The notes under the pieces: model-generated
Database searches by the model: none
What the model saw: only the letters and a program-made list of their open reading frames with translations
Told to the model about the DNA's origin: nothing
Translations under genes and position numbers: made by a program
Shown here: positions 7,212 to 56,179 of the stretch, one piece after another
How the letters are laid out: each line of letters starts with the position of its first letter
Position numbering within the stretch: the first letter of the stretch is position 1
Assembly: GCF_036588685.1 (NCBI RefSeq)
Contig: NC_086379.1
Coordinates: 15,872,001-15,936,000 of the forward strand
Reading direction: 5' to 3'
DNA length: 64,000 nt
Source of the DNA: Mytilus trossulus
Lineage: Eukaryota

Positions 7212-7472
7212 CTCCCCTTCCGATATTTCTAACTGAAAATCGCTATAAAAAATTAACTCATTTATCTTTAATCACATGATGGTAAATTATTACTTCTATA
7301 GCATGTTAAACTTGAAAAACTAGAGAAAAGATGTGTGATACATTGTTACTCACAATACACATACATTCAAAAAAATGACAATGAATGAACATAAAAAATC
7401 ATACTAAATTTCTCAAAAATCTCACAATGTATCTATAATATAAACCACTTGCAATTGTCGAACTGAAGAGTT

Positions 7473-10400: not shown

Positions 10401-13184
10401 ATCATTGAGGGCTACACCTCCAAATTGAGCGGACGAATCAAAAACAACTCTGATAGATTCTGGCTTTCGAGGATGGTATACCCCGAACATGGGCAAATAC
10501 CATCGCTTATCATTCGGTAATAGACTTGGTGCTTTTTCAGCATGACCACGTTCAAATATTTTGTCCATAAACAACTTCACATGTTCCAACTTAGTAGGAT
10601 TACGGCGCAAATTCATGTCAAGAGAATTGGCGCGTTTTAACGCAAGAGCTTTGTTATCTGGCAATGGTTGAATATTCTTACGAAATGGCAAAGGTGCGGT
10701 CCAATGCCCATCAGTGTCTTTTTCAAACTCTGAGTCCATTAACCTTAGAAAACGTGTATCGTCCACTGAAAGTCCTATTTTGTTATCCTTATCTGTTTTT
10801 ATAAATAAATCGGTTTCAACCTTAATTTTACTTTGACAAGGTTCAAATAATGTTGGTCGACCGCTATTTGTGATGTATGTTTTGTATACAGTTATTTCAG
10901 GAACATGTGCATTTCCAAGACAGACTTGTCCAACAATGACCCAACCTAAGGGTAACTTTTGTGCAAATGGGAGCCGGTCTCCCTCAGTTCTCTGATCTAA
11001 TACATAATGCACTGCAGATATGTCTCGACCAATTAATAGCTCTATTTCTATGTCTTCCATCACTTTAGGAATATATTTGGATATTGGTTTGAGATGGGGA
11101 TATTGAAACGCAATTTCTGGAGACGGAATCTCGTCTCCTTTGCAAGGAATGTCATTACATTCTATAATGTTTGGCAATTTATACATACAACTTCCATCTA
11201 AAGACTGAACAGAATATCCAGTTCCTTGCCTACCACTTGCTTGAACTTTACCAGCACAAGAAATCAACGAATAATTTATATCAGGTCCATGATCCTGGAA
11301 TGCGTTAAAGAGGTTAGATGTTGCTAATGTGTGCGAACTCTGATCATCAATCATTGCGTAGACAATACGATGTTTTTCAGGCATGTTGTGATTTACAATT
11401 TTTACCGGAATAATTTTGGCGCATGATTTGCTTGTATTTTCAGGATACCCACACACCTGTGTACACGACACCTTAACATCATCACCAGAGTCCTTGGTCC
11501 CCTCCCCTTCTTGGACTGAGACCTCCACATGAAGTGCTGTGGGATGTGATTGACTCTTACATATAGCACATTTAATATTGTCATATTTACAGTTTGCAGC
11601 CCTATGCTTTGTTGGACCACAACATTTGAAACAAATACTGTTTGTTAGAATAAAGTTTCGTCTTTCCGATAAGGGTTTCTTCCGGAATGCCATACAATCA
11701 TTAAGAAGATGATTTGTCTTGTGTATCGGGCACAAATTTTCCTTGTGTAACTCATTGTTTGTTTTTCTTTCCTCTGCAATTGTTTCTGTTTTATGAGTAG
11801 AAATGTTCACATTTCTGTACGATTTCCTATACGTGCGATCTTGTTCGCTTGCACTACTTGTTTTCTCATGAGTACCGGTAAGTTGAAAACTTGGGTCATT
11901 CTTCATTTTAGCGATTCTCTGTATGAATTGTTCGAAAAATGTAAACGGGGGATAGACACATTGTTCTCGTTCCTTGTATCTTGTTGCATCTGATGTCCAT
12001 TTCTCACGGAGATTCCATGGCAGTTTGGAAATGAGGAGATTAACTCCTGTCGAGGAGTCAAAATACGAAAACAGAATGTTATACTGAGGTTGACATTTTA
12101 TTGAAGCTATTTCAGAAGCAAGGTCTGCTAACTCATATAAGCGTTTTGGGTCTTGTTTGTCAATGACCTTGAATGACGAAATTCTTCTTTTTAAGCATGT
12201 CTCTATGACTTCTGGCGAACCGAACCTTTGTTCTAGTCGTTCCCAAATTTTCTCAACTGCTAAACCTGGATTTATCGCATTACATGCACGAATGGTTGAC
12301 GCATGTTTTGATGACTCAGGCCCTAGCCAACGTACTAATAAATCGAGTTCTTCTGTAGAAGAAGTGTCTAATTCTAGCATGATGCCCTTAAAATTTATTT
12401 TCCATGAAACATATAGCATGGGATTATCGTCAAATTTCGATAGGCGATTTAAGATGAGATCTTTCTTAATCAAAAAGCGACTTAGTCCAGTGGCAGATTG
12501 TAAGGTTGAATCATCTATTGTTCTTGGTTTAAATGCTGAAGCAGATGCATTTAGCGTTGAAACTGGTTCAATATTACTTGGTTGTTCATAATTATCACTT
12601 GTGAACTTTTGGCTAGCCTGGCCATGCGGAGTACTAGATGAAAAAGTTACATGGTTGTTGTTATTAGAATCTGTCTTTGTGTCACTACAAAATCGTTCAT
12701 CAGAATCTATTCTTTTAACTAAAGTCTGATCATGATCATCTAAACTTAACAGATAGTCACTTTGAGCACTTTTCAACTCTAACAGTGCCTCTAACTCTGC
12801 TGTTTGCTTCCGAATCTCAATCTCAGTTTCTAAACACTTTAATCTAATACGTTTGGCTTCAAGTTCTTTTGATTGTCTTTGTTGGGTAGCTGTACTAGCT
12901 AATGTTACAGAATCTGTACTTACAGATGGTTGTTGTGGCACAGGAGAATCTATGCAAAAAGATTGTTGCACAGGTAGACTTCTATCAGGAGACGCCTGCA
13001 CAGATGAACTTCTTTGTGGAGATGGCTTATTACTAACATGAACTTGATCAAAGCATTCATCAAAGTCTGAAAGTAGTTGTTTAACCAATTCAATGTTTTT
13101 GTCCAATGATTTATCGTAATCATCTCTACTTTCACAAAATGACTGTATTTTGTCTGAAAACGCATGTCCTTCAGCTTGACACAT
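7473..13184 (-). CDS. BEL/Pao Gag-Pol polyprotein (Gag zinc knuckles, aspartic protease, RT, RNase H, integrase), 1903 aa
   Basis: Three BEL-type knuckles (CPIHKTNHLLNDC, CFKCCGPTKHRAANC, CAICKSQSHPTALH), protease IDDQS, RT NFYVDD, RNase H VHVFCDAS...TIPRLEL, integrase HHCC plus LDVFGP/SDRGTNF/GGVWERM. Domain order PR-RT-RH-IN. Confidence 0.97.
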   Translation of the reverse strand: MCQAEGHAFSDKIQSFCESRDDYDKSLDKNIELVKQLLSDFDECFDQVHVSNKPSPQRSSSVQASPDRSLPVQQSFCIDSPVPQQPSVSTDSVTLASTATQQRQSKELEAKRIRLKCLETEIEIRKQTAELEALLELKSAQSDYLLSLDDHDQTLVKRIDSDERFCSDTKTDSNNNNHVTFSSSTPHGQASQKFTSDNYEQPSNIEPVSTLNASASAFKPRTIDDSTLQSATGLSRFLIKKDLILNRLSKFDDNPMLYVSWKINFKGIMLELDTSSTEELDLLVRWLGPESSKHASTIRACNAINPGLAVEKIWERLEQRFGSPEVIETCLKRRISSFKVIDKQDPKRLYELADLASEIASIKCQPQYNILFSYFDSSTGVNLLISKLPWNLREKWTSDATRYKEREQCVYPPFTFFEQFIQRIAKMKNDPSFQLTGTHEKTSSASEQDRTYRKSYRNVNISTHKTETIAEERKTNNELHKENLCPIHKTNHLLNDCMAFRKKPLSERRNFILTNSICFKCCGPTKHRAANCKYDNIKCAICKSQSHPTALHVEVSVQEGEGTKDSGDDVKVSCTQVCGYPENTSKSCAKIIPVKIVNHNMPEKHRIVYAMIDDQSSHTLATSNLFNAFQDHGPDINYSLISCAGKVQASGRQGTGYSVQSLDGSCMYKLPNIIECNDIPCKGDEIPSPEIAFQYPHLKPISKYIPKVMEDIEIELLIGRDISAVHYVLDQRTEGDRLPFAQKLPLGWVIVGQVCLGNAHVPEITVYKTYITNSGRPTLFEPCQSKIKVETDLFIKTDKDNKIGLSVDDTRFLRLMDSEFEKDTDGHWTAPLPFRKNIQPLPDNKALALKRANSLDMNLRRNPTKLEHVKLFMDKIFERGHAEKAPSLLPNDKRWYLPMFGVYHPRKPESIRVVFDSSAQFGGVALNDVLMSGPDLSNSLQGVLLRFRRERVAVTADVEQMFHNFRVKTDHRNYLRFLWHPNSDLSKPLEEFRMTVHVFGNSPSPAVATYGLRRSVQTASLDVQKFVSKNFYVDDGLISCSSVCEVVDLVKNTQSELMKGGRLRLHKIASNSTEVLKQFAKDDLAKDLKNIDIDEENLPLQRSLGISWDINLDAFVFSVDTEPKPFTRRGVLSTINSLFDPIGFTAPVTLEGKLLLREIMSCSSSTDWDDPLEEDFHKRWKLWVDSLKNLCELCIPRMYCIYSVENASRLEVHVFCDASKEAVAAVAYLKVFSGETSDIGFLIGKTKVAPKHGHTIPRLELCAAVLGIDIAEIIKDQLDIDNEDFHFYTDSQIVLGYISNDEKRFFVYVANRVGRIRAFSMPKQWNHIPTKENPADLATRPFSASDLPSSKWIRGPSCLTTNLKTIDDLNFPLVEPDIDKEVRTVISTAKSTLHVSTSCLLCNSIDKFSKWSKLVCMVRLMKVCMRRKSGDKSAVTTEEAELVVLKHVQNECFHTELEAIGCGQNLPKNSSLISLNPILDNNGVLRVGGRIRHMLTKGDNTADLPLDKHPYIIPRNHHVTILLIRHYHAKVQHQGRTMTEGAIRAAGLWILGVKRKVNSVIHNCVLCRKLRGKFGWTQMADLPADRLQVDAPFTYVGLDVFGPWQVIVRRTRAASSSNKRWGLLLTCLVSRAIHVELIEELSSASFINALRRFIALRGPIQELRSDRGTNFIGAAKELNIVSEFVEDTPMKQFLSDNEIVWIFNPPHASHFGGVWERMIGSCRRILDSLLLQNKFKDLTHEVLSTLMCEVSAMVNSRPLVPVSSDPENPSVLSPSLLLTQKPASSSGSLGQVEFGTKDAMRSQWKLVQYLADQFWSRWQTEYIDSLQARPKWKSGGDNFLEGDVILMRKTELPRSQWPLGVIDKVFESDDSKVRKVQVSIVVDGQRKSYVRPISELVRLIEAS

Positions 13185-13213
13185 CTTTGCTGTTGCTGTA
13201 TAAGATCTTTTAC

Positions 13214-13791
13214 TGTGATGTTACATGACCCAAAATCAAAGAACACTATAAATTTGGATATGTTTATTCCTCCTTCTACTGAGGGTAAAAGACTACAAAA
13301 AAGAAAATAACACAATGTAAATGACAAGCAAACATGCATGTATCAATCATATGATAAGTCATTTATAACAAACAATCAATATCAAACATAAAAATATTGG
13401 ATGAATAACACCGACTTTATACTAGTAAAATCTTGAAAATAAAACCAACTTTTTACGATTCACACGTTCCATACAGTGAACATTAAAAAATCTGACATGA
13501 CCCATGTGATCAACTCATTTGACGATTCGCACTTTTCATACAGTGATTTGAACAACGTGGTTTGTGTGTGAAATAATTCAAAGCGTATACTTTATAATCA
13601 GTAAAAATACTTATGTAAACTTTATATAACAATAGTTTTAAGATAAATAAATGTAAAGAACTTACTCTATGGCGCTTATAACCAGCAAATATAAGTGTTG
13701 AAAGCAGAACAAATTTGACAGGAAATGCGTCTGACATTACAGAAATACTAATAAAGGAAACAAATCGGAAATCCGTTCCGGTAACATTACA
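13214..13791 (-). repeat. 5' LTR of BEL/Pao element
   Basis: Direct repeat of 6634-7211; minus-strand AATAAA at 13263-13268. Confidence 0.96.
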
Positions 13792-13946
13792 CTGTTAGCT
13801 AGTAGTTACTGCGGTCAGATTCTTGTTATTACACAATATAACAATCAGAGTCATCTGTTATCTCGACTCTCAATGTATGGTACTGGTTGGCGGTAACAAG
13901 TTCCAAAACATTCTTTGTGAAATGAGTGTTTTTGAACTTGTTTAGT

Positions 13947-15114: not shown

Positions 15115-18041
15115 CTGTTTTCTAAACTCATTCACCATATTAGCTGTACTAGACCGATCATACAAAAGCACAACATATCCGTTCTATTACTTTTAACACT
15201 TTTAAAATTTCCACTTCATTTGGATTTTCAATAACCTGCAGAAATGCTTCTGACAACTCCTCATATACGAACCATGTATCCCAAGCTGATTTCGTACCTT
15301 TCCCAGAAAAAGCTGAGACTGTGTCACAACCGGTAAATGAATGGAACAGTGGAAAGACTTTCAATTTCAATGGTCCTAGTGCAAGGCACAATCCATGAAT
15401 TGAAATATATAGAAAGTTCTTTCCAGTGCCAAAACCTATCCACAGCTGTTTAGCCATTTGAATTCCCCTTTTAATGCAGCTGGGAATGAGGACATATCAA
15501 TTGAAAGTTCTCCTTCAACTAATGGGATATCTGGTTCGATGAATATTAGTACAGCTGGTGGAAGATTTGAATAACTCTCTGGTAAAAGAGACACTCTCTT
15601 TGACTGGCATTTCAACATAAGTTCAGATTGGTCAAATGTTTGAACAACGCCTTGAACATCCTCTGAAATATATTGGAATAAAGATATACCTGTACCATGG
15701 AATGAATCTTTTAACGAGATACTGCTTGAATTGTGATCAATGTTGTCTACAGCAGATGAAGTAAATACATTTTGTAGTGGATTGGTAGGGCAAAAAAATA
15801 CCTTCTTTGACATAACGACGACAAGCATCCTTGGCCATGGAAGTAGAAATTTCTAACACTAGGTCGTAGGAGACAGACAGTCCAAGATTGAAGAAAGTAT
15901 ATACTAGATCACGTTTGCTAGTCTTACATGGATCATGATTCCCAAATAAGCACAAACTGGAGGTTCATGATCTTTCATGTGACGGTTGGATAGTTTCTTT
16001 GTACAACTATATACATCAGAAGATGTGCTATTGTTAATGTCGACTGAGAATATGAAAGATCCTGAATGTTAGGTCCAAATTGAATCATACTGACCAAAGT
16101 AAGCAATGACTGGGGTACATAAGCTTCCTGATATCCCTTTGGGAAAGTTTCTTTAAATTCTGAATTTGATGCGAAAATATCTTTACGAACAAACGTAGCT
16201 GATTTTGATATGTTGACAAACTCATTATCAAAGTCTTCTAAGCAGACTCTCTTCAATGCAGGTCCAATGTCATCATTGAAAGCAAGACTGTTTTCAAGAC
16301 CTTGTTTGTAAGCATCTAAGTTAGGGAAATTACAATTCTGTGTTTTAGTCGTGTACTATTAACTCGAGATGAAACATCTGCACCTAGACATGTTATTCTT
16401 TCCGTATAAAGTTTATATAGATCTGACAATCTGAAAATGCAATACCATGGATTTGACTTTCCTTCTTAGATTCGACATTATCATTTTTCATTTCAATTTG
16501 AGATGCACGATTATATAAGGAAACAAAACATTTAGAGTGGTACTTTGCTTCCTTTGCAATTAGATCACCAGCACTTAACTTTGCAAGTAATAACGTGTCA
16601 TTTAATTTTACTGCTCATTCTCTCACACGTGTATCCTGTCTAAACGTTGAGGACTCATGAAGGGCTTCTTGGCCATTTTCATTACAGAAAAAGCACACAG
16701 ACGGGTTACTGGTGGACTGAACGGAGAAGCTATGTCTAGTTTTCTTTTAGATTCGATTGCTTTATCATCTATTCTCTCATGTGAGGTTGGTTTTTCTGCT
16801 CTATCCAATTTTGTCCTGTTCAGTTTCAAGTTGCAAGATTTGTGCCAACATGCCTTTTGGTCAATGGAATACTGTGCTATTCCAGATCCCTCATCTAAAT
16901 ATAAGTTTTCAATGCACACATTAATGCCTTCAGGCATCAATCGTAATTCATGAAACTTCTAAATATTGTCAGCTAAAGATTGATAACCAGCATCAACATT
17001 GAGACGTTTAGAATCAAATGGGCATATACGTTTTTCATCTATTATTTCTTGGCATAGGATGCAATTTGCCCAATCAATATTATTTAACTTAATTGGTTTG
17101 TCATATTCTACACTTGATACCCTGAACGTCTTTTCAGTAGCCATGTTGTAAGAAATATGATCGTAAATTAGTTAAACTGTTTATATATTCCTTGTATATA
17201 ACTTCTGTATGCCAGACGCGTGTTTCGTCTACAAATGATGTATCAGTTACGCTAGAATCGAAAAGTTAAAAAGACAAAAAAAAAGTATGTAATTTAATAT
17301 TTAACGACCTGAAATCCTGAAAGTTTTGCAAAGCACAAATATTTGTTGATTATTAATAGCTTTCTAGATATACACGATATAGTTTCTGATAATAAGACTT
17401 TTACGGCCATTTTGAATTTGTCGGCCATTAAGCAATTATTTTTGATTGTTCCATATTCAGAAAAGATTAATTAGCATCATAACTAGCAATATGCAAAGTT
17501 TTTTTGCTTTTATTTTCAAATGATCAATTATACCATTTTTTTTTACTCTGCCTCATGACTGTTGGCGGCCATTTTGAATTTATCGGCCATTATGGAATTA
17601 TTTTGATTGTTCCATATTCATTAAAGATTAATAAGCACCATAACTAGCAATATGCAAAGTGTTGTGTTTTTATTTTCAATGATAAATTATACCATATTTT
17701 TGGACTCTGCCTCATGACTGTTGGTGGCCATTTTGAAATTGGCGGCCATTTTTGAATTTTTTTTTATTGTTCCATATTCAGAAAAGATTAATAATCATCA
17801 TAATTAGCAATATGCAAAGTTTTGTGCTTTTATTTTCAAATGTTAAATTAAACTATATTTTTGGACTCTGCTTCATGACTGTTGGCGGCCATTTTGAAAT
17901 TGGCGGCCATTGTGGAATTTTTTTTGATGGCTTCATATCCAAAAATGTTTATAAGCATCATAACTAACACTGTGCAAAGTTTCATGCTTTTACCATAAAG
18001 TGATCAATTGTCCCAAAATATTGGACTTAGCTGCTGGACTA
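15115..18041 (-). mobile_element. Decayed Academ (AcademX-type) DNA transposon, internally deleted and 3' truncated
   Basis: Frameshifted pieces: IDWANCILCQE, ACWHKSC, LIAKEAKYHSKC, LGLSVSYD, AVDNIDHN...DSFHGTGISLFQ, then XPG-like FHSFTGCDTVSAFSGKG. Minus-strand terminus TAGTCCAGCAGC at 18041. Confidence 0.7.
17404..17990. repeat. Subterminal tandem repeat (about 160-bp unit, about 3.7 copies) rich in GGCGGCCATTTTG motifs
   Basis: The GGCC of the unit-start motif recurs at 17405, 17567, 17726 and 17887. Confidence 0.85.
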
Positions 18042-18044
18042 TTA

Positions 18045-26800: not shown

Positions 26801-29800
26801 CAAGAATGCATTATTAGTATTTTTTGTCTATTCGTATACATTGACATTATGTAATCAATTGATAAACTTGCAATATTGATGTTAGTGTGTCATGTTTCTA
26901 TACTAAACCAAGAATGGTCGTGGTACAATGGATTGTTACTAGTAGAAACGACGATACAATGTTCATTTACTGTCACAATACAATTCTTTATAAATAGCGA
27001 AAAAGAAGCATCAAAAACTTTTAGACGTAAACGTGAAATAGTTATGTGTTCAGAACTTATATGTTGTGTTTTTCCATATCGAGAATGGACCCTTTGGTTA
27101 CAACTATAACTATAACTGCGCACATTGCAATATAATGGAAATTTGGTTTGTTATTTGCTTACCTATGAAAACAGACAATAATTCTTTGCATTCCTTAATC
27201 GTGCAGCTGTTGTTTCCAGCGCATCTTGTACATGGAAGTTTTGACTGCTCCACCAAACATTCCTTAGTTATATTCTTATGCATGGCTGTATATTAAGAAT
27301 TTGTATGAAACTATTAATTGATTGATATAAATAACTCATGTAATGAAATATGTTTAGCGACACGAGATGTTTGCATAACGTTTTATCAATATTTGTTTTC
27401 ATTTCAAAGGTTTTAACTTGAACATGAACTATTAGCAGCAAAGTATAACAGTCAAAACGTCGGTCAACAACTTGTTTTCATGATAGATGCGAACCATCAG
27501 TTCAAGAGGGACTATTATTATTACAAGTTTGAACCATAATTCTCAATCAAACAATTCAGAGTCAAAAAAACACTTCGTAAATTGTATGCTTTCGAAGCCC
27601 TTTTCGGGAATTCATTTTAAAGATAGAAGATAAAAACATAATAATCAAATCCCTCAAAGATGAAATTAAACTTAATTACCTCAACCAAAAGTGTCTAAAT
27701 ATTTTATTAGATAACAAACGTATTTTTTTAAATATTGTCAGTTACGGATCAATGACTATTGAATAACAAATCGAAGTTTTCAACGACCTAGACTAGCTAT
27801 ATATTTCACCTTTGAAATAAGTAGATCGTATATAAGTATTGATAAAAAAAAAAGATGACAAACGAAATAATTTATTCCTAATTAAATTCTGGTAATGATT
27901 TGTATGTTGTTGTGTGTTTTGTGAATTCGGGATTTTTTCTAGTTCGGAACAGTCGATTCTAAGTAAATTCTGTGGACTTTTGTTATTCATGTTTTGCTTA
28001 TGAAATATGATAGTAGTATAAAGGTAGTAGTCTTAATGCAGAGATGGGTCTGTTTACGTTCAAGAAAATTTATTAAATTACAATTGCTTTTTCGATTGTA
28101 CAGTTAAATTAATGATAACATCATGTCTCAAAGTAACTGATTAAGTTGATGCTAAAACTACAAGTTATCATGATAACATCTGAGTACAAAGAATTTTAAA
28201 ATTACCCTTTTTAATGATATAACATATGTATAAATAACTGTATAACTTTTGTTAGAATGATTTTATTTAATAGGTTATAAAATAAAAAATAATAACTTCT
28301 ATAATTTAATGAACCACAAAGATTTAAAACATACAGTATATACATGCACACTATGTCACTGATTATGACCTGTTCCTACTTTACAATCATTAATGTCGGA
28401 ATTAGTTTGACTTTAATTGAAAAAATAAAGGCAACAATAAAATTAAATATAGTCACCAAATTTTGAATTATTTGGTGAGAGAACATTATCTGTATAGTGA
28501 AAATTAAAGTTAAAGGATATTGCAAACTTTTTATCTCTCTTCCTAAGAAGTACCTGCATGACGTCAGTCTCATTATAATAAAGGAACAAGTCGGTAAAAA
28601 GGAGGACCAATTCGTTCCCATTGGAATGCAAGCAGTCTGTTCAAAAACACGTCCTCCAAAAGTACCCAAAGGGATTTCTCTGATTTACTTAAAAGACTTT
28701 TTCTGTTTCTTTGGGGGAAAATTACAAATGTTGTATAATCTATAAAACTTGGGAGACAGTAGCTAACCGATGTTCAAACCAACTTTATAAAATATAAGCT
28801 GAGGTAATAGCAAATGATTTACATGTAAAGTAAGAGGTTTAGTTAGCTATAAAACCATATTAAATCCACCATTTTCTATATAAGAAAATGCTTGTACCAA
28901 GTCAGGAATATGACAGTTGTTGTCCGTTCATTTGATGTGGGTTTTTTTTATTTTGCCATTTGATTAGGGAGGTTCCTTTTTCTTTTTATATTCAAAATAC
29001 TGTAAGTTTTGAAATCTTTGTTATCATGTGAGTTGCAATAATTTAAGGAAGTTGATCCTTACTGTCTGCACGGCGAGCACTAAGTTTTCGTAAGTATAGG
29101 CAGAATGCTTGTGATCAGATATATCATAATTTTTAGTGCTCTTCATCTATTTTTTTTCAGTTTTCAGTAGATTTATCTGACTCACTTGTTAATCTTTAAT
29201 GAAGCACGGTAATGTGTAATTCTTAAAAAGTAAAATAACAAAAATACTGAACTCCGACGAAAATTTAAAACAATAAGTCCCTAAACAAATGACAAAATCA
29301 AATGATAAAACACAACAAACGAATGGACCACAATTGTCATATTCCTGACTTGGTACAGGCATTCTCAGATGTAGAAAATGGTGGATTGAAAATGGTCTTA
29401 TAGCGCTAAAATTCTCACTTGTATGACAGTCGCATCAAATTTCATTATATATTTGACGATGCGTGAACAAAATAGACGTTTGCACTCACACCACATCTTC
29501 TTATATCTATTATAGGTAAAATTGTCAAAATAGGTATACAGCCATCAATACTGTGTCACAAGCGCAATCAAAACAAAACAAACAAATACATAACAAAGAA
29601 GCACAAAAAAGAAAATATAAATTAAACAACCACATGCATTACTACTTATATGTATTTAAAATCAACCCAAATAATTGCATGGCGAAGTTCTGTATGTTTG
29701 ATGTTGGAATGTTCACACGGGAAGATATATCAACTAATTTTGTGTTTAAAAGTATTTTGAATTTTATAATAGAACAATAACATTATGACATATAATAGAA

Positions 29801-34665: not shown

Positions 34666-35268
34666 GTAAAAAAATATTGTTAAAAAATATATAAAACTAC
34701 TGATAATTTTTTTTAATCTGATACAATACATATCTCATGTATCTGTAGAACAATTTGATCATGGCAAATAAGCGTAAGACATGTAATTGTATTAACTAGA
34801 GGAAAATAAGAAGAGTTTCTATGATTACATATCACATAGTCCAGGATTCACTTAGAATATCTGTATAGGATAAAAACAACGTAGTAGAATAAGATATTTC
34901 GCTGATATATGACGTAAGACTGTCATCATAATGTGCGCCACAACCTGTAAACCTGTATTAAATGAAAATATTTATTATCCTTTTTTTTTAATGTTACATT
35001 AAATGTGTATATTTATACATTCAATTTGTCTTTAATATTATCTATTTGTGTTTAAGCAGTTACCAAAAGTTGTACATATACGTTACACACGAGACTGAAA
35101 GATACATAATTATACAATGTTTTCACATAAAGAGGTACACAGTTATCATCAAACATTGAAGGCATATTCAATTAATTCCAAATAAAACATGTAAATTTGA
35201 GCGTTTAAACTTTTCTTCTTTTAAAATGTAAGAAAACTTGAAGCACTGTCAGTCTTTTAGCCATCGCT

Positions 35269-36587
35269 TTGCAAGCAGAGCCAAATACAATGATAGTTCC
35301 AACTATGTATTGGCTTCCGAAGCTTCACAAAACCCCTTACAAATATAGATTTATTTCGTCTTCAAGCCATTGTGCAACTACAAAATTGTCTATTCTTCTT
35401 ACCAGCACACTTGATACAATTAAAAACTTTATAATAAATTATTCAAATAAGGCCTTCGAAAATAGTGGAATAAATTACTTTTGGAGTGTCAAGAACTCGT
35501 TGGAAGTACTTGATAAATTGCATGCTTATATTGGTGATTTTGAATCTGTTCAAAGTTTTGATTTTTCTACCCTGTATACCACATTGTCTCAAATTCTCAT
35601 TAAGTAAAAATTCACACACCTAATTAAATGGGCATTCAAAAATCAGAATGTGAATATATATGTTCAAACTCTTTTAGGTCATTTTTTAGTAGCAATAAAC
35701 AAAAAAACTATGTTAATTGGACATGCTTTGATACTATATATGCCCTTGAATTTTTACTTGATAACATTTTTGTTCGCTTTGGGGATTCCGTATATCGTCA
35801 GATTATCGGAATTCCAATGGGGACTCACTGTGCACCACTTATTGCGGACCTCTTTTTGTATTGTTATGAGTTACAATTTATGACAAAAATAAGCAAAGAC
35901 CCATCAAAACTACATCTGATAAACAAATTTAATAATACTTTTAGATATTTGGATGATATTTTGGCTCTCAATAATGACGACTTTAGTATGTATATTAATG
36001 AAATTTATCCTGCTGAACTTACTTTAAATAAAGCTAATACTAACAATGACCACTGCCCTTTCCTCGATCTTGATATCTATATCACTAACGGAAAGCTGAA
36101 TACTAAAATTTATGATAAAAGGGATGATTTTTCATTTCCTATCGTTAATTATCCGTTTTTAGATGGTGACGTTCCCTTGTCACCATCTTACGGTGTTTAT
36201 ATATCTCAACTTGTACGATTCGCTCGTGTATGTAATAATGTTTTAGATTTTAACGAGAGAAATTTATGTATTACTGAAAAATTATTACACCAGGGTTTTC
36301 GATATCACAAACTATTCAAAACATTTACTAAATTTTATCATCGGTATAAAGACATCATTCGTAAATATAGCTCAACATGCAGACTTCTTATACGTTCATA
36401 TTCAATTTTTTATGGAAATATTCTTTATAAAGCACAAAGGTGTCAGTATTCACCTCAGAAACTTACAAAACCTTTGAATAGACTTATTAAAAAGGGATAT
36501 AATAACGATACTGTTGTCAAGTCATTAAAGATTTCATACTTTGGCGTTAATATTGAGTCACTGATAAGGTCTTTGCGTCGGAACTAA
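35269..36587 (+). pseudogene. Penelope-like reverse transcriptase, disrupted
   Basis: ORF pieces 35269-35607 and 35628-36587 are separated by a TAA and a 1-bp frameshift in the A-run near 35640. Confidence 0.88.
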
Positions 36588-36637
36588 ACACATTTATTTT
36601 AAAAACATTTGTTGGCATGAAACGGGTTATTTTCTTC

Positions 36638-36707
36638 TCATTTATGTTATGATGGTATGATACTAAACCCCTAACGGGAAGGATTGTGCCAGATGTTCAT
36701 ATGATGA
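36638..36707 (+). promoter_or_regulatory. SECIS-like (type II) selenocysteine insertion hairpin in the PLE 3' UTR
   Basis: ATGAT core (36649-36653), 11-bp helix II GGTATGATACT/AGGATTGTGCC, AAA (36665-36667), CCC/GGG mini-stem, and GA on the 3' strand (AGAT rather than canonical U/G-GA), closed by a lower helix. Confidence 0.7.
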
Positions 36708-37559
36708 AATCATAATCTTTCAGTCAGTTTAATTGAAGTCTGGAGCTGGCATGTCAGTTAACTGCTAGTAGTATGTTGTTATTTATGTATTATTGTCATT
36801 TTGTTTCTTTTCTTTGGTTACATCTTCTGACATCAGACTCGGACTTCTCTTGAACTGAATTTTTTAATGTGCGTATTGTTATGCGTTTACTTTTCTACAT
36901 TGGTTAGAGGTTTCGGGGGAGGGTTGAGATCTCACAAACATGTTTAACCCCGCCGCATTTTTGCGCCTGTCCCATGTCAGGAGCCTCTGGCCTTTGTTGG
37001 TCTTGTATTATTTTAATTTTAGTTTCTTGTGTACAATTTGGAAATTAGTATGGCGTTCATTATCACTGAACTAGTATATATCTGTTATGGGGCAAGCTGA
37101 AGGACACCTCTGGGTGCGGGAATTTCTCGCTACATTAAAGACCTGTTGGTGACCTTCTGCTGTTGGTTTTTTTTTATTTGGTCGGGTTGTTGTCTCTTTG
37201 ACACATTCCCCATTTCCATTCTCAATTTTATATTACTTTGTTTCTGACACAAAATGGTTAATTTAGGTGCCAAATTTATGTTTTTTAGAAGAAAAATGTA
37301 CCGACGGTGATAGAATTCGAGTTTCAGGTAACATACAGTCTCAAAGTTAGTACCAACAAGTCGAACATTTTTTTTACGTAATCTGTTTTTAAAGCATTTT
37401 CTGGACTAAGCAATAAAAGTAAAAAACAACTTCAAACGTTGTACAATGTTTAACTCTCACCTTCATACATACTCCTTGAACTACGGTGAAGAATGCAATT
37501 GAAATACATTTAATTAGAAAAAAAATAACAATTGCTAATCAATAGGCAGTTCTTAAATT

Positions 37560-38760: not shown

Positions 38761-40209
38761 GCTTTATCCGTATGACAGTTGTTATTCATTCGTTTGATGT
38801 GTTTGAGCTTTCGATTTTTCGCCTTTTTGGACTAAAGATGCCCTGTCAATACCAGAAATATGACCTAGCTTTAACCCCGTCGCATTTTTGCATCTGTCCT
38901 AAGTCAGGAGCCTCTGTCCTTTGTAAGTCTTGTATGGTTTTTTTTATTTCTAGTTTATTTATGAATAGTTATGGAGTTTAGTCTGACATCAATTTTAACT
39001 AGTACACAGTTAATAGGAAGCTTACTAATCGTAGTGCCCGCAAACGTCGTCTTCAAAACCTACAGGCAATATGGCTGCAAATGTACAAATTATGCAAATC
39101 AAATGATCATAAAAATGTTGCAAGTATAAACATTTACTCACGATAAATGGAAAAAGGGTCAACAAAGACAGATATCAGTGCTGCCTAATACTTCTGAGAA
39201 AACTCATCATATGCCAGAATATACAAAATCTCATGAAAATACTGGCCCTTGTTAAACCAACTACTGTTTCAAAATCTATAACAATCCACCATGTAGTCAA
39301 CCATTGCACATTTTCTCAACACACATTACTTGAGATAATGGAATGTCATTTACTTCCTAGGTAACAACTACAATTATGTTGGAACATTTAACTTTTACCG
39401 CTACTCGACACTGGGTTTCCTTTAAAACCTACCTCATAGAAGAATTCAAACGGCTTTTACCCTTGAACTTTAGTTATTATGAAGCAGATAAATGGTTGAA
39501 AATCTGTTAATGACTAGCGTATCTAAATTTCAAAGTAATACAATTTGATGAATCTATTTGAATATATGTGTGTTTCAAAAAGTAGTGTACAGTTTCAATT
39601 GATGCATTTACATATAAATGTTTAAGTAAATGACCCAGATGTGTCTGAAACATACATATTTGAACTTTTCCTTCCTCTGAAGATGAACAACACATATTTA
39701 ACTTTTTGAGTTTTATTGATGACATATTTTGAATGAACACTGTATCAAAAGGATGTATTTTACGTCGACTTGGATGACCTGACTCATACACAAGAGTGTA
39801 CAAGTTCCTATGATGAAATTAGATATAGGGTAAATATCAATGTCAAGACATCAATTAATTTAATGACAAAACAACAGACATTTAGAGGTCATCATAGATA
39901 CACGCATATTCTTGGTGGCTGTGGGATATTTTATGCTCTTCGCTCGTGTTGTTGTCTCTTCAACACATTCCCCGTTTCCATTCACTATTTAATAGTCTTC
40001 AACACTATACAGATGTTAATAAGAAATGAGATATCTGCCAACAAAGGAAGAGATTCCTTACAGGGGACATGCATACGAGGAAAGTATTGGTCAACCAGGT
40101 CTTAATATATACCTACAAAGGTATTGAATTAGCGAAATCCAAATCAAAGATTTCGGTGATTTTAAAATCAATATAATTAAAAAGATATCTTACTTGGTCT
40201 GATAATGAT

Positions 40210-41825
40210 AAATAAAGGCAACAGTAGTATACCGCTGTTCAAAACTCATAAATCTATGGACAAAAAACAAAATCGGGGTAACAAACTAAAACCGAGGGAA
40301 ACGCATTAAATATGAGAGGAGAACAACGACACAACACTAAAATGTAACACATACAGAAACGGACCAAGCATCAGACAAAATCCCACGAGAATAACAAATA
40401 TAAAATCAAAACCAAATGCATGAATTTGGGATAGACAAGTACCGTGACACGTCTTATCGCAATGTGAATTTACACTTAAAAATAAGAGAAAACAAACGAC
40501 GCAACGTTAAAATGTAACACACACAGAAACGAACAATAATATAACAATGGTCATATTCCTGACTTGGTACAGGACATTTTTAAAGGAAAAAATGGTGGGT
40601 TGAACCTGGTTTTGTGGCATGCCAAACCTAGCACTTTAATGGCAATGTTAAATATAACATTGAAATGACAACATAATATTACAGGAATACAATACAAACA
40701 AATGGGAGAACGTATTAGACAAAGAAACACATGATTAATAGATAACAAAAAGCATCAGGTTTAAAATTTAATACGCCAAAAACGCGCTTGGTCCACACAA
40801 GACTCACCAGTGACGCCCAGATATAAGAACATCCCTATTATTTAGAACAATTAATGCTATTGCAAACAGTAAATTTTATCAAATGAATATAAAAGATATA
40901 CATAATGAAACTGAAGTATTAACTAACTACAGAAAACAAAAACCGGAATACATAATGCAAAGACCAACTTAGAATAAACACACCCGACTCAGTCCAGGCA
41001 TCAACGCAATAAATCATAAAAATGACGTCACATACGATGGTGAAAAGGCACAAAAATTACGTCACATTTGAATTTATGAAATTTCTGGAACAGCACAAAA
41101 ATGACGTCACATATGAAAAACTATATCTCAAAAGTAAGATAGAATTAGGATTGATTTAAGATTATAATAGAACTAAATACTGATATTACATTTAAATACA
41201 ATGCATATTGCAATACTTATTAATAGCAAGTAACTATAATATATATATGTCCAGTTTGTTATGAATCCAACTTCAAACGTAAATTATCGTACAGATTACG
41301 TTGAACAAAATTAAATCTAATAAATGAAGGCGGTGATTAATTTTTCTTTCCATAACACATAAATATAATAGTAAAGACGTCAACACATTTGACAAAATCC
41401 GATGAGAATTACAAATATAACATTAAACATTTAAACTAAATACATGAATTTGGGATAGACAAGTACCGTAAAACGTCTTATAGTAATGCGAATTCACACT
41501 CAGCAAAACAGTCACAATTGGGAATAAGTCACGTTTGGTAATTATAAGATTAGACGACATAATGACAAACCACAATCTACCATGTGGTGAAAATGTTCTT
41601 AGCTAGTTTGTTCAAAGACACATCGTATGGATCCACCAATTCGTGATGGTGTCCATAAAATTTACGGAGTGTCAATTTTAATCTGTCCTCCTCATAACTT
41701 TGTTGGAGCAGTTTCTGCGTAAGGAGCACACTCCTGTATATGAAGTCCGTATAATGTGAACAAGCACGTGAATAACGTATCAATTGTGATATGTAAACAC
41801 CATACGAATGGGCAGATGATATGTA
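40210..41825 (-). mobile_element. 3' end of a Penelope-like element (RT thumb at 41577-41825 plus long 3' region with degenerate hammerhead at about 40771-40818)
   Basis: SYGVYISQLIRYSRAC...LTQKLLQQSY...LRKFYGHH. The 3' region has internal repeats (40420-40475 vs 41445-41500) and GCGTCA-CTGGTGA-GTC...GAC-CAAG. Confidence 0.75.
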
Positions 41826-49365: not shown

Positions 49366-49755
49366 AATAGTTATCAAAGTACCAGGATTATATCTTAATA
49401 CGCCAGACGCGCGTTTCGTCTACATAAGACTCATCAGTGACGCTCAGATCAAAACAATTAAAAAGCCAAACAAATACAAAGTTGAAGAGCATTGAGGACC
49501 CAAAATTCCAAAAAGTTGTGCCAAGTACGGCTAAGGTAATCTACTCCTGGGCGTAAGAAAATCCTTAGATTTTCGAAAAATTCAAAGTTTTGTAAACAGA
49601 AAATTTATAAAAATGACCATATAATTGATATTCATGTCAACACCGAAGTGCTGACTACTGGGCTGGTGGTACCCTCGGGGACGAAACGTCCACCAGCAGT
49701 GGCATCGACCCAGTGGTGTAAATAGTTATCAAAGTACCAGGATTATATTTTAATA
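49366..49755 (-). mobile_element. Retrozyme: 355-bp unit plus a terminal partial repeat, with an intact type I hammerhead
   Basis: AATAGTTATCAAAGTACCAGGATTATAT occurs at 49366 and again at 49721 (period 355). Non-coding. Confidence 0.9.
49400..49443 (-). ncRNA. Type I hammerhead ribozyme (intact)
   Basis: Minus strand GCGTCA-CTGATGA-GTCT(tatgt)AGAC-GAAA-CGCGCG-TC^TGGCGT; predicted cleavage between 49406 and 49405; palindromic minimal stem III. Confidence 0.9.
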
Positions 49756-50082: not shown

Positions 50083-50468
50083 AGTCAGGAATACGACAGT
50101 TGCTTTCCATTCGTTTGATGTGTTTGAGGTTTTGGTTTTGCCATTTGATAAGGGACTTTCTGTATTTAATTTCCCTTGGAGTGCAGTATTTTTTTATTTC
50201 ACTTTTTTTTTAACACAACGTCTATATATTCCAACACCATTCATTATTGAAATATGTATGAAACATTAGATGCGATTCAAATTACCTTTGATTTTTATTT
50301 TTCTTTGCTTTTGTTAACAAGTTAAATTTCTAGTATTATTTAAAATTTGTAACTTGTTTACAAGGCAGGATCGTGGATTCACGCATATGAGTAAAACATT
50401 TTCTCGTCCCTGCCTTATGAATCAGTTGTGTGATGTATTTACATATGAAAATATATGAGCTATAAACC

Positions 50469-50913
50469 TAGAATCATATTCAAAACAGTGTGGTCCTGGC
50501 CATTGATTGACGAAATAAATTATCACATTGACTGGGACAGATTAGGTGAACGTTTGTCGGTAACAATCACTGCTCACTATGTACTTGTTAAAGACACTGA
50601 ATCTGTGGGGTCACCAAAGGTTCTCAACACCTAAATAAAGCAATTCGAAAAACGAATCCGGAATAATACTATGTGTTGATTTATATTAATAATATAAATC
50701 AAAACATAAAGGTTATTCCTGAATAATTTTTCGAATTATTTTATTATTAAAGGCGGTAAGAACCTTTGGTGACCCCACAGTTTAAATTCTATAATAAGTA
50801 AGAAGTGAGCAATGGTCGTTACAGACAAACGTTCACCTAATCTGTCCCAGTCAATGGGATAATTTAGGTCGTCAATCAATGGCCAGGACCATACTGTTTT
50901 GAATATGATTCTA
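50469..50913. mobile_element. Foldback MITE with about 170-bp imperfect TIRs and TAG...CTA ends
   Basis: TAGAATCATATTCAAAACAGT...GGGGTCACCAAAGGTTCT is mirrored by AGAACCTTTGGTGACCCC...ACTGTTTTGAATATGATTCTA. No clear TSD. Confidence 0.85.
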
Positions 50914-52890
50914 TTTATACAATAAGGCTCATGACTTTTTGTATTAGTTTTTTCGAAAGATTTGTTTGTTAAAACAGTCGCATTACCATAAAACCCATGT
51001 TGTTGTGTGTGTTCTTGATGTTTAAATTTCGTATTATAACATTTTCGTTCTTGGTGTTTCAACGGGGATGTGACTCTCCAGACAGGTGTAATTTTACATT
51101 TCTCATTCTATATTTTTCAGCCTTTGTACGAAACAATTTAAGTAATTTGTATGTAATATTTGCTTCAAATAAATGACCGTTAAAAAAAGAGAGACGAATA
51201 TACCAAAGGGACAGTCAAACTCATAAATCTAAAACAAACTGACAACGCCAAGGCTAAAAATTAAAAAGAAAAACAGAAAAACAATAGTACACACGACACA
51301 ACATAGAAAACTAAAGAATAAACAACACGAACCCCATCAAAAACTAGGGGTGATCGCAGGTGCTCCGGAAGGGTAGTTAACGTTGATCTCTCTGCAGTCA
51401 AAGTGGTAAACTAATACGTTATACTCAGTGTCACCACGGAAAATTGTATCTGGCCATTCTTCTAGCACAATTATGTAAATTTTTACTATCGCTATCATAT
51501 AATTGTAAATCCTAATCAAATTCTGCATAGTGTTCTTTTAATAGTAACAGTGCGAATGAAATATATTAAAGATATAACGAGACAGCAACAATAACAACCA
51601 AAAAAAAAACTAAAGTTTTAGTCTGAACGATCAATCCACTCATCAATAATTGCATTTTAGTATAACAAAAGTACAAAACAAATTAATGTATGTCAATTGT
51701 CAATTGATTAATCCATAGCAAGCTGTCATATGTCCATTTATTTTCTAAATACTGATATATTTTCAAACATATCAATTTATTTATATATTAAACATGTTAA
51801 ATGAATGTATTATATTTAGTTTGTATGTACATAACACATATAATATGAATAAAAATAAAAATAAAAGTTATACACACAAAACAATACACTTTAAGTTATT
51901 TTTTTAAATGTTAACATTGATATGAAATATTAAATGTTCATATAGTTATGAACCTAAATATTGTTCTTTATCATATATAATTATCTAAAATTTAATTCCA
52001 GGCAGAACCACAACCACATAAAATTGTTACAATGATTATCCTTATTAAGTGTACGAATTCCCGTTTCGTCTGACATCTAGACATTCATTGTTAAGTTCTT
52101 TAGTGCAGACAAGTTTTCATTAGTGACTATGTGTCTCAAATAGACGACTTATAATACATATTTAACTTGTTTCAAAAAATGTTCACATGTTTCACATCAT
52201 TATAATCTGCACTTATGTTTTAATAAGAACCACAATGAATGATTGATCCAGGACTTGTGTAATAGGACTTTCCACCTTTTGCAATTCAACAATATACATT
52301 TAGATGCTAGAGATCGTATTACCCAATGTCGACATTCCCACGAATTATTTACGTACTTATATCAAATAACTTTAAAACGTTGATTAAAATGCAAATTTAT
52401 CGAATCAACAAACACAAAAAAGTGTACAAAAAGATACATGTTTTTTTTTTAAGATTTGTCTTGACTTAATAATTTTCAACTAGCTAAACTTGCTCAACTG
52501 TTTTAAATTCACGACAACTTTCTTTTGCTTAAATGGGAAGGTGCTAATAATATTTATTTTACTATATGCAATTTTGTTATATTATCCATTCATTTCATTG
52601 GACACGTGCTATTTGTTAAGTTTCACTAACCCTTCATACGCACCACCCAACCATAGCAACATGTGATATTATTTTCAACGGGTGTTAATGCCTAAAATTA
52701 ACTTCGGTATTTTAAACAAATTTCTTAAACGTCTGCAATTTTTTTGAATTGAGGTACTCGTTTGATATGTCTTAGACCTTTTGCAATCAGTCCACAATTT
52801 TCAAAAACAAAACTTTTAAATAACATTATACTCTAGTTGCAAGACTGTGTATGGCATATGTTGTTCGATTTTTAAATTTGGTCTTTCAAT

Positions 52891-55472
52891 TTACATGTCA
52901 TCAATGTTCAAGATTGGTGTAAATATCTCCTCGAGCACATTTTCTATCTCTCTGCTCTGTATGGACTGTAGGATCTTTCTTAGCCAGGAATCGATGCCAT
53001 GTTGTCCACAATAAAAGGGAATATTGAGGTATTTTCGTATAAAGTTGTACATTTTCATTGTGCCTGGAATAAGATAGTACAATATTTAAGAGAATGTATC
53101 GAAGAATGTATGAGATGACTATTTCTGTCGCAATATCATATCGAACATATTGAAATTTTACGACAGACCTAGATCATTTAAATAGAATTTGAACGGTAAT
53201 GTGTAACAATTAAATTTGAGTATTAATTCTAATGTTTAGCCCACTTCTGGGTAAGTCTTCAAAAAGTTAGCTTAGTATTAAAAAATTTAGAAAAATATCA
53301 AATTTGACTGGAAAATATTTAAAATGTTTAAATAAATTGATAACAACAACCTTTTTGACACCGCCACATTTTCACGTGCCTTTTCCATTCTCGTCAGTAT
53401 TTGTCGTATGTCAAATTTTTTTTTTTCCGTTTTTTAGATATATGGGTTTTGATAGCAGTATACTAATGTTTTGGTTTAATTAATTTTAACTTTTTAAGAC
53501 TCGGTACGATTTAGAGTGTTACAAATAAAAAAACACACCTGTGATTGTTGGAGACTGCATGTTCGCTTTTAATGTATTTGGCTTATTTTTGTCGCTTGGT
53601 TGCTGTTCCATAATTGACGCTTATCCCATATCTACTTTTAATCATATTAATGCTGTCTATTCATGTGAATTTCACCATTAATTTTAGTTTATCATTTTTA
53701 ATAATAGAGAGGCTTTTATCTCCCCATCGTTATGATTTTATATAAGACAATATAAATGTTTATAATCTACCTTTTCCCATCTGTTTGGCGGCATCTATAT
53801 TTCCATTACATGCATTTTTGTAAAGGGTACACATTCTATTTGAGAGACGTTCCCCAGCTTCTGTGTGTTCTTTTCCTGATAGGAAATTTGTCTCCTTCGA
53901 AGCCTTTTGTTTAGATAAAAACAGCAAGTCATACCATTCTATCTCCTTTAAAGTCGACGTAATGTCGAGATATTCTTGCGCAAGTAAGTCAATTTCTTTA
54001 AGAACGAGATTTCGGAGGTGACGTAGATCGATGGCCTGTGCAGTCAGAAGAAGTAGGTTTGCTGTCATCATTTGTACAATTTCAACTGCCTCTGAGGTGA
54101 ATCGCGCGGAGACTAAAGCCATTGAATTGATTGCCTGGTTGTGGCATTCTGCACTCAATATATGATTACTCATAGGGTTGACAAAATGATCGAGTTCAGA
54201 CATGTAAGAGGTCATTGCTATATCACAGCCTTTGAATCCGAAATCAACATTGATGTCACATCCACTTAGATTCGGTGGCAATCCGAAATTCAGCTTATCA
54301 TTTACAACCTCTTCGAATAGAGCAAATTGTAGCTTCCCGCAAATTCCAAGCGCTTGTCGTGTTTGGTCCATTGCGATAGACATAGTTTCTCCCTGGAAAT
54401 TAGCGTTATGTAAAACTGTATCTGTGCGATGGTCAATTAGTGGATTATCATTTGCGCTGTTAAGTTCAATTGTTATTCTTCTGCATGCTTCGTTAAGTGT
54501 TTCAACAGCTGGTCCAAGCCATTGTGGTGAACTCCGCACACTATAACGATCTTCCTTAAGAACTCCACATTTGTCTGGCAGGTTCATGTCTAATGTCGTG
54601 ATAGCTAACTTACTACCTTCTAGAATTGACAACATATTCCTTGCTATTTCTTTCTGACCTATATGAGGAAGACAGTTGTGGATAAGAGGATGGAAGCTCT
54701 CTGTTCTTCCTTTCACTGCTTCAATTGACAGTCCGGTACATACTTGGGTAAGAAGAAGAAGCAAATTTGCGTCATAAAGTGTTGGAGCCGAGAACCCGGC
54801 AGTGAATGAACATGAATTTATTACCCCTAAGCCTTCCTTTGGGCCAAATACAATCGGTGATATACCAGCCTCTGCAAGAGCTTGTGGACAAGACATTATT
54901 TTCCCTCCTTTAAACACTTTCATATCTTCTCTTCCTATCATGGTTGCTGCAATATAACCTAGAGGCATCAGATCTCCGCTAGCACTAACAGATCCACGCA
55001 GTGGAACTTCGGGCACAATATCGTTATTGATAAGATCAGTCAGAGTTGTGACCACTTCAGCACGTACTCCAGAATATGCTTTTGCAAGACAATTTGCCCT
55101 CGTTACCATTGCAGCCCTAATCATTTCTAAAGGAAACATTCGACCCATTCCAACATTTACAAGACGGATCAACGCCATCTGCACATCTTCAAATTTACAC
55201 GAACGCACGTCGGAACTTCCACCGAAGCCTGTGTTTATCCCATACAAAACAAGTCCTTTTTCTAACTTCTTTTTTAGATACACTGCATTTGCTGTTAACT
55301 CTTCCATGGATATTTCAGCAATTTTTACTTTCATGCTTGGCTCAATGCTGACTGCAAGGACTTCTGGTATGGTTAAAGTAGTTCCATCGAGCGTGATACT
55401 GTCTAACGTGTTTTTCCTTTTTTGGATGAATGTTAAAGTTGTTCTTGCATGAGAATTATCCATTTCTGTCAT
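52891..55472 (-). CDS. MIO-dependent aromatic amino-acid ammonia-lyase/aminomutase of PAL/TAL/PAM type, about 624 aa
   Basis: Coding exons 55472-53771 and 53063-52891 (phase-1 GT-AG intron; 1875 nt including stop). Motifs YGINTGFGG (catalytic Tyr), PLRGSVSASGDL (ASG/MIO, 54975-54983), KEGL..IN, DRYSVRSSPQWLGP, NDNPLID, NFQG, GFKGCDIAM, SAECHNQAINS, and C-terminal MYNFIR..L.I. A splice acceptor at 55491-55492 with an in-frame stop before the ATG suggests a 5' UTR intron. Confidence 0.93.
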
Positions 55473-56179
55473 TTTCCCAAATTAAAGAACCTGCGTTATG
55501 GATAGATTATTTTACATGTTTTACATCATACGAAAAAAACTATGTCTTTTTAATAAGATAGAAACATGAATTACAAATACAGTATTAATTCCGTTAAAAA
55601 TAATACAGAGGCTTCTTTCTTAGTAATGCCTAAGAACTATAAAAAATTAATTCATTTGTTTGGTATAATAGTAGTTCTACGTTTGTAGTTAACGTTTGAA
55701 ACGTTTTCAAACATTAAAAATGATTTATCGACAGCCCCGATAATATTATATGATAATTTTGAGTGCCTTTTGAGACCTTCGCAAAATATCCATCCTAGTC
55801 TGACTTCAGACATTAACATACAAACAAAACATTACACTCGAAATCTCAAAATGTCCACGAATTAGAAAGTAATTGAGATTGATTTAAAAAATACTATAAA
55901 AGGTCTACCATTTATAACTAAAGCCAAACATAGACGATACTCTTGGTTTTGGACAGACCGTCATAAGAATATGTGACATGCCTATACTACTTACCCCTAC
56001 CCGCCCTGTTGACCTCACCACCCCATCCTCACTTGTAATAATGATCAGAGTATAAGAATAGGTAAATAAAATATTGTTATATTCTATTACATTTGCATGA
56101 TGTCGTTCCAAATAAGCCACTTTACGTTAAACATCTGTCCATCTTTCCATCGCATTTATTACAGAAGGATATTTAATAA

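Follow-up and report, generated by a model that had tools for sequence, protein, structure and literature searches.

The window, by which we mean the whole 64,000-nucleotide stretch of Mytilus trossulus DNA that was analysed, carries a truncated copy of a Naiad Penelope-like element (PLE) whose tail holds a hairpin of the selenocysteine insertion sequence (SECIS) type (Table 1). At the nucleotide level, the copy is 97% identical to positions 2167 to 4094 of L001, a near-full-length relative, with the match continuing into L001 positions 1 to 138, and 90% identical to two further relatives, L002 and L003. The copy had been described from the window alone as 5′ truncated and devoid of in-frame UGA in the part that remains; indeed, it begins at L001 position 2167, 100 nt past the last UGA of the family (L001 positions 2065 to 2067). 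The window copy has thereby kept its SECIS and lost all four UGAs. Its reading frame is damaged by a 9-bp deletion, by a TAA that comes too early (35605) and by the loss of 1 bp near 35641; owing to this 1-bp loss, the 319-amino-acid (aa) open reading frame (ORF) opens in a different frame. Because of these lesions the copy is dead and cannot encode the protein of the family.

Table 1. Features of the element copy in the window and UGA sites of its near-full-length relative L001 (positions are those of the window unless L001 is named)
Feature	Position	Strand	Evidence or remark
5′-truncated inactive Naiad Penelope-like copy, 3′ half of ~4.0-kb unit	35254-37234	+	Nucleotide identity to L001-L003
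Coding remnant upstream of RT core, ending at premature TAA (35605-35607)	35254-35607	+	
319-aa ORF, C-terminal reverse transcriptase (RT; GIPMG, YLDD), no in-frame UGA, stop TAA 36585-36587	35628-36587	+	
RT stop TAA	36585-36587	+	Sequence
Type II SECIS element	36639-36703	+	Rfam RF00031 28.4 bits, family alignment, covariation
Helix I	36639-36643 with 36699-36703	+	
AUGA core	36649-36652	+	61 nt 3′ of RT stop
Helix II	36654-36664 with 36680-36690	+	Standard pairing at 10 of 11 positions, A.G mismatch at the other
Unpaired AAA	36665-36667	+	Sequence
Apical mini-stem CCC/GGG, 3 bp	36668-36670 with 36676-36678	+	
3′ core AGAU	36691-36694	+	Sequence
Twister-P5-like motif, same 3′ UTR as SECIS	36902-36992	+	Equivalent in L001 at ~3823-3913
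Self-complementary palindromes at P1 place	36925-36934, 36936-36945	+	
UGA site	L001 codon 61		Second Cys of CX4CxxC finger
UGA site	L001 codon 92		Cys before GIY-YIG motif
UGA site	L001 codon 103		First Cys of CCHH finger
UGA site	L001 codon 528		Cys after DKA motif

Further mobile elements and genes were observed around the copy. A second, degenerate Naiad copy of a Cys-only lineage lies about 320 nt behind the first (37557 to ~39005, + strand; 71% nucleotide identity to L051); its codon for the Cys behind DKA is TGT, and a partial twister-like core near 38893 closes the copy. The remnant of a third Naiad copy, on the minus strand, occupies 41625-41822 (-) and 40206-40826, the latter 95% identical to L054 positions 1034-1656. 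The Pao/BEL long terminal repeat (LTR) retrotransposon at 6634-13793 (-) is a very recent insertion, with 580-bp LTRs that are 99.8% alike and an unbroken 1915-aa ORF. A phenylalanine ammonia-lyase-like gene forms one long ORF at 53760-55481 (-); the product shares 99% identity with a protein of Mytilus galloprovincialis and 90% with an M. trossulus one, and its close relatives are found in bivalves, brachiopods and annelids, then in plants and fungi. Type I hammerhead-like motifs at 4435-4478 (+) and 49400-49443 (-) scored 28.8 and 33 bits (cut-off, 34) and sit in a dispersed repeat with more copies near 17208, 25164 and 34459. Lastly, an imperfect inverted repeat of about 460 bp was seen at 50461-50919 and a tandem array of about 160 bp at 17404-18043.

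The original prediction had placed a type II SECIS geometry about 60 nt past the RT stop, with one noncanonical base (AGAU) on the 3′ side. Both statements held: the AUGA core follows the stop by 61 nt and every part of the structure is present, including the type II traits (a helix II of ~11 bp, unpaired AA, apical mini-stem and helix I), while AGAU is a mutation of the copy's own. The published core pattern is UGAN/KGAW (PMC8481496), in which the 3′ GA is preceded by U or G; the AGAU of the window copy fails this rule, and the UGAU of the family passes it. Rfam model SECIS_1 (RF00031) matched the hairpin over its full length at 28.4 bits, with a gathering score of 35 and an E value of 0.0021 in a 701-nt search and of 0.2 in the whole window. 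The form 2 SECIS of RF00031 shares with the family the AUGA/GA core, the 11-position helix II, the AAA, the apical mini-stem and helix I. The family differs in that its SECIS rides on a mobile element and scores below gathering (also in L001, at 32.3 bits) and, in the window copy, in the A at the 3′ core. Folding of positions 36638-36707 was modest (z = -2.24; 6 of 200 shuffles were equally stable), and a 101-nt stretch around the hairpin gave z = -1.19. The hairpin of this single copy is by itself suggestive. It is the comparison across the family, rather than the fold of the window copy, that places it beyond chance. As background, our own SECIS pattern was run against random 360-nt pieces drawn from the window, up to 150 in number, and matched none of them. 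A chance hairpin is ruled out by this background scan together with the conservation and covariation described below.

Relatives were collected by an RT-query search of metagenome contigs, which gave 154 relatives among 236 candidate stretches; the best 80 of the 154 were kept. L001 and L002 each contain a single frame of about 1000 codons whose sole interruptions are four UGAs; L003 shares all of these and has an additional one ahead of its likely start Met. From its likely start Met, the L001 frame runs for 1002 codons (positions 502-3507) and comprises a GIY-YIG endonuclease, a CxC linker, a DKA motif and the RT, with the SECIS 61 nt past the UAA stop. The whole SECIS of L001 occupies its positions 3562-3626. 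The expectation that full-length members would carry in-frame UGA at N-terminal Cys positions was thus borne out by the four Cys-aligned UGAs of L001, L002 and L003. L006, at 63% aa identity, has five: the same four and codon 391, the first Cys of CxC.

The protein has the features of a Naiad-clade PLE, as had been supposed, namely the N-terminal endonuclease and the CxC and DKA motifs. Its Naiad motifs comprise RSHG at 227 (KR-rich block), CNC at 391 (CxC), GPKYR at 426 (GxKY) and DKA at 518, which replaces DKG. Partial tandems (pLTR) and 5′ truncation, a Naiad trait, were likewise seen, with contigs joining the 3′ end to truncated starts. The GIY-YIG assignment came from the cut-out domain: L001 positions 730-1110 matched PF01541 with an E value of 0.00056 and 20.6 bits, just below the cut-off of 22.6; queried whole, the L001 and L006 proteins had no Pfam match at E 0.1. 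Through its truncation, the window copy lacks this domain. The L001 endonuclease region also aligned with the PF01541 region of P0060 (E = 2e-16). With respect to the insertion-in-fingers domain of telomerase-like Naiad RTs, motif A to motif B of the L001 RT spans 83 aa, a value measured in this protein only. Two zinc-finger-like motifs were recognized in L001, C56-U61-C64 (CX2-5CxxC) and U103/C108 with downstream His residues (CCHH). In addition, conservation of at least 90% across 57 aligned proteins was found for each of C385, C387, H399 and C522 (counted from the start Met), which suggests, speculatively, that these four residues, two of them Sec sites, might form a third metal site.

The distribution of TGA codons was then compared between lineages. 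Codons 570-935, the core of the RT and a region that leaves out all five switching sites, were used for a tree that split 42 rows of a UGA-bearing lineage (the Sec side) from a Cys-only group of 7 (the Cys side). Support for this split was an SH-aLRT of 99 in a quick mixture tree of 51 rows and 100/100 in a more careful tree (LG+G4, 49 rows). For the latter, two long rows were dropped and a long-branch warning was given; the rooting is uncertain, and group membership was taken from the tree itself. The lineage with UGA and SECIS thus takes up 42 of the 51 tree rows and spans about 41 to 97% protein identity, and the Cys-only lineage is about 40% identical to L001. Codons were counted in 55 of the best 80 loci (46 Sec-side and 9 Cys-side; the 25 omitted were mostly too short for the tree), and tallies were restricted to loci free of TAA and TAG in the aligned part (37 of 46 and 5 of 9, respectively). 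These loci contain near-duplicates, and the fifth site (391) was chosen from the same data. In the 37 Sec-side loci, the 131 cells at the five sites comprised 93 TGA, 37 Cys and a single other codon; outside these sites, TGA turned up once among 769 cells of other Cys columns and three times among 29,052 non-Cys cells. The Cys-side loci tallied (5 of 9) gave 16 cells at these sites, every one of them Cys and none TGA. TGA aligned to Cys among relatives, which had been named as a check, is therefore present. An alternative genetic code (UGA as Trp or Cys) was rejected on the limitation of TGA to five Cys columns, on the ordinary codons of L001 (25 Cys as TGT/TGC and 7 Trp) and on the host being Mytilus. 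The minimum numbers of changes on the tree at the five sites were 2, 3, 3, 8 and 4, from which we conclude that exchange between Cys and UGA has been recurrent.

Of the 38 Sec-side tree rows whose sequence includes a 3′ end, 31 yielded a SECIS, as against none of 6 Cys-side rows. Detection was by pattern scan, Rfam or family model; 4 of the 31 calls rest on weak family-model matches alone (E values of 0.24 to 1.1), and 4 of the 6 Cys-side controls offered at most 311 nt of 3′ sequence, a length to be read beside the L045 SECIS, which lies about 310 nt past its stop. The only locus that reached the Rfam gathering score was L032, at 38.8 bits. The 3′ core reads UGAU in all six related rows of alignment A1 (three distinct sequences), so AGAU is private to the window copy, which also has a private change in helix I at 36642 besides that at 36691 in the core. 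The change need not abolish function, since L006 has C at the same core position and an A-U pair is possible there in the SECIS candidates of L045 and L060. These type II candidates (L045 3600-3687 and L060 2589-2676, both about 310 nt past the stop) belong to the most distant UGA-bearing subclade and show a compensatory change in the apical stem; the SECIS of this subclade was missed by the pattern scan and then recovered by the family model. A SECIS-like hairpin in L030 (~4352-4415) is seemingly split by an insertion of about 20 nt, and the ORF ahead of it retains two UGAs.

Covariation of the hairpin across copies, a further check named in the original prediction, was found in two alignments. 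In A1, an unfitted MAFFT alignment with 4 distinct rows, 6 of 19 pairs had changed on both sides and 92% of cells were paired compared to 34 to 46% in slid controls; all six compensatory pairs stem from a single split, L004 and L005 versus the rest. In A2 (16 distinct rows), 18 of 19 pairs covaried, in an alignment that was fitted to the model and is hence biased.

From these sequence comparisons we hold it to be very probable that the hairpin is the SECIS of a mussel Naiad family, that the four Cys-site UGAs of intact members are decoded as selenocysteine, and that the window copy is a dead fragment of this family. Eukaryotic selenocysteine insertion uses the SECIS, SBP2, eEFSec and tRNA-Sec (PMC8557442), and selenoproteins with UGA and SECIS are known from Mytilus (PMC8481496). 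By analogy with this established pathway, the host machinery would recode the four UGAs, and the product would be a full endonuclease-RT protein in which three zinc-finger-like positions, as well as the Cys position behind DKA, carry Sec instead of Cys. If the UGAs were not recoded, the first of them would terminate translation after 54 residues, and transposition would for this reason depend on selenium supply. Copying is expected to start from the 3′ end and mostly to truncate, so that SECIS-bearing fragments would far outnumber complete elements.

One alternative is that the UGAs are read through mostly as Cys or another amino acid, by leaky or near-cognate decoding, with the hairpin as a helper or a vestige and no selenoprotein being made. 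The switching of the five sites between TGA and TGT or TGC among lineages is in its favor, as Cys evidently works at each. Leaky decoding, however, does not fit the confinement of TGA to five Cys columns beside 25 ordinary Cys codons in L001, nor a covarying SECIS that accompanies the lineage with UGA and went undetected in the Cys-only one; moreover, four consecutive leaky stops would leave almost no full-length protein. We regard this alternative as improbable.

Still less likely is that the UGAs are true stops, in which case the N-terminal half would be dead or separately expressed, an RT fragment would arise from a downstream AUG, and the hairpin would serve RNA packaging or template recognition. 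An RT fragment free of Sec could indeed start from in-frame ATGs, which L001 has at codons 574 and 579, and public protein calls of relatives are fragments of 590 to 620 aa. Against this stands the constraint on the region between the UGAs. For L001 versus L002, dN/dS was 0.046 over codons 61-200, 0.097 over codons 61-527 and 0.109 over codons 529-1008, so that the endonuclease (0.046 to 0.117) is as constrained as the RT (0.109). The frame through the UGAs is under purifying selection across the three near-full-length relatives, with dN/dS of about 0.1, and these low values indicate that the region between them is preserved as protein. The invariant DKA motif, furthermore, sits upstream of the last UGA, and the read-through L001 protein gave one confident AlphaFold model (pLDDT, 85; pTM, 0.72). 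The best fold matches of this model were telomerases (E = 9e-11); a sequence search of the PDB gave no match.

Selenocysteine decoding by intact members thus remains the preferred reading. The stretch 35700-36800 was found in 20 sequencing runs of 13 studies, and two RNA runs covered 30 of 30 bins of L001, on both strands. RNA and DNA depth on L001 both climbed steeply toward the 3′ end, the latter about 30-fold; DNA depth in the SECIS bin was 11 to 13 times that of the endonuclease, a ratio that is not a copy number. Because RNA reads came from both strands and tracked the DNA depth gradient, a dedicated full-length transcript is not demonstrated; the depth pattern fits many truncated copies inside host transcripts. 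Of 492 read variants, the 40 listed all lay outside the UGA codons and the SECIS, and this carries no weight for UGA constancy. That the window copy itself was retained since its SECIS serves a host transcript at the locus can hardly be credited: its hairpin still folds, L045 and L060 may pair A-U at the changed core position and the SECIS region of the family is covered by RNA reads on both strands, but the copy has private changes in the core and in helix I, its AGAU departs from the KGAW core (PMC8481496), its SECIS is no better preserved than the rest (97% overall), the recognizable host genes of the window (an MFS transporter and the ammonia-lyase) lie on the opposite strand, and no host ORF was recognized beside it on the + strand.

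The 3′ UTR that harbors the SECIS contains a second structured motif, which resembles a twister P5 ribozyme. On the L001 equivalent, Rfam RF02684 scored 23.1 bits (gathering score, 37.6; E = 0.0046). P2, P4, the L4 consensus, the UAA cleavage loop and the closing P5 are present; an intramolecular P1 helix is absent, and a 21-nt spacer carries two palindromes instead. Within the best 80 loci, 15 matched a pattern for the motif, from the UGA-bearing lineage as well as the Cys-only one; the window had a single match, which carries a copy-specific change at 36975. The P3 and P5 stems vary among loci yet pair, and the palindromes vary in sequence and keep their self-complementarity, which was equaled by 0 to 2 of 2,000 shuffles in five loci. 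Palindromes in place of P1 suggest a dimeric form of the putative ribozyme, which may be likened to the dimeric hammerheads reported for PLEs; the window copy and L001-L003 gave no hammerhead match at E up to 5, in keeping with the lack of a canonical hammerhead in Naiads. Twister is not mentioned in the available part of PMC8557442 and was not named for Naiads in the literature searched; as far as their accessible text goes, PMC6765202 and PMC10085705 do not link the two, and PMC8501958 concerns an RTE element. Further twister-like cores were seen in short repeats of the window at 28857-28920 (+) and near 29359 (-), 40573 (-) and 26103 (-), and are likely the 3′ ends of other Naiad families.

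Selenocysteine in Naiads has been described before. The statement that some clam and spider Naiads are reported to encode it is confirmed by Craig et al. 2021 (PMC8557442), in the accessible part of which the families Naiad_Mmer and Naiad_Scon (clams) and Naiad_Sdum and Naiad_Smim (spiders) are listed. These have three to four in-frame UGAs and a type I SECIS 1 to 21 bp after the stop, and Sec incorporation is there a prediction only (PMC8557442). The mussel family and the published ones share the N-terminal GIY-YIG, CxC, DKA, the C-terminal RT, the UGAs and a SECIS in the 3′ UTR. A UGA before GIY-YIG and another after DKA are common to the mussel family and all four; that at the first CCHH Cys is shared with the clam families Naiad_Mmer and Naiad_Scon, and that at the second Cys of CX2-5CxxC with Naiad_Sdum, so sites of the spider type (61) and of the clam type (103) occur together in one protein of the mussel family. 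It differs in its host, Mytilus rather than clams or spiders, and in its SECIS, which is of type II and 61 nt past the stop, whereas those of the published four are of type I at 1 to 21 bp. The UGA at the first Cys of CxC (391), seen in relatives of the mussel family, is unlisted in the available text of PMC8557442. By eye, over the first ~400 aa, the N terminus of the mussel family is unlike all mollusc consensus proteins compared in the portion of the PMC8557442 supplement at hand.

Two published sets tie in with the lineages described above. L032, which belongs to the same UGA-bearing lineage, agrees by eye with the stop and SECIS context published for Naiad_Mmer at 33 of 34 nt, and this match ties the published clam element to the UGA-bearing lineage. 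Mussel Naiads have themselves been published (Naiad_Mgal, Naiad_Mcor, Naiad_Bpla and Naiad_Mphi; PMC8557442 supplement) and share clade, domain order and host group with the mussel Sec family, but the accessible part of that source mentions neither UGA nor SECIS in their case. The Cys-only L051 resembles Naiad_Bpla by eye, and its lineage is the one set apart from that of L001 at 100/100. In the literature searched, with most subscription journals outside the search, no Sec-encoding Naiads were found beyond those of PMC8557442 and none in mussels; likewise, no direct test of Sec readthrough in a transposon was found in print. The kind of element is already published, and the locus is a modest addition, a mussel family joining two clam and two spider families.

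A wider reading strikes us as doubtful. Selenocysteine may be an old, lineage-wide trait of one Naiad branch rather than a peculiarity of two clams, and the five switching sites may all be metal ligands, including those of the third site (CxC, His and the Cys after DKA). Transposition would then be selenium gated, and truncated copies, roughly tenfold commoner, would scatter working SECIS elements into host transcripts, where they could seed new host selenoproteins.

It has been proposed that transposons donate SECIS elements to host genes (PMC8557442), and the SECIS-bearing truncated copies make this proposal testable in mussel genomes. Standard gene calling truncates ORFs of this type at the UGA and can hide the endonuclease. 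The broad lineage with UGA and SECIS, in which switching has occurred repeatedly, constitutes a natural series on the role of Sec at zinc-finger-like positions, and the family, a young and numerous one whose intact members can be retrieved as contigs, provides a ready substrate for testing Sec readthrough in a transposon directly.
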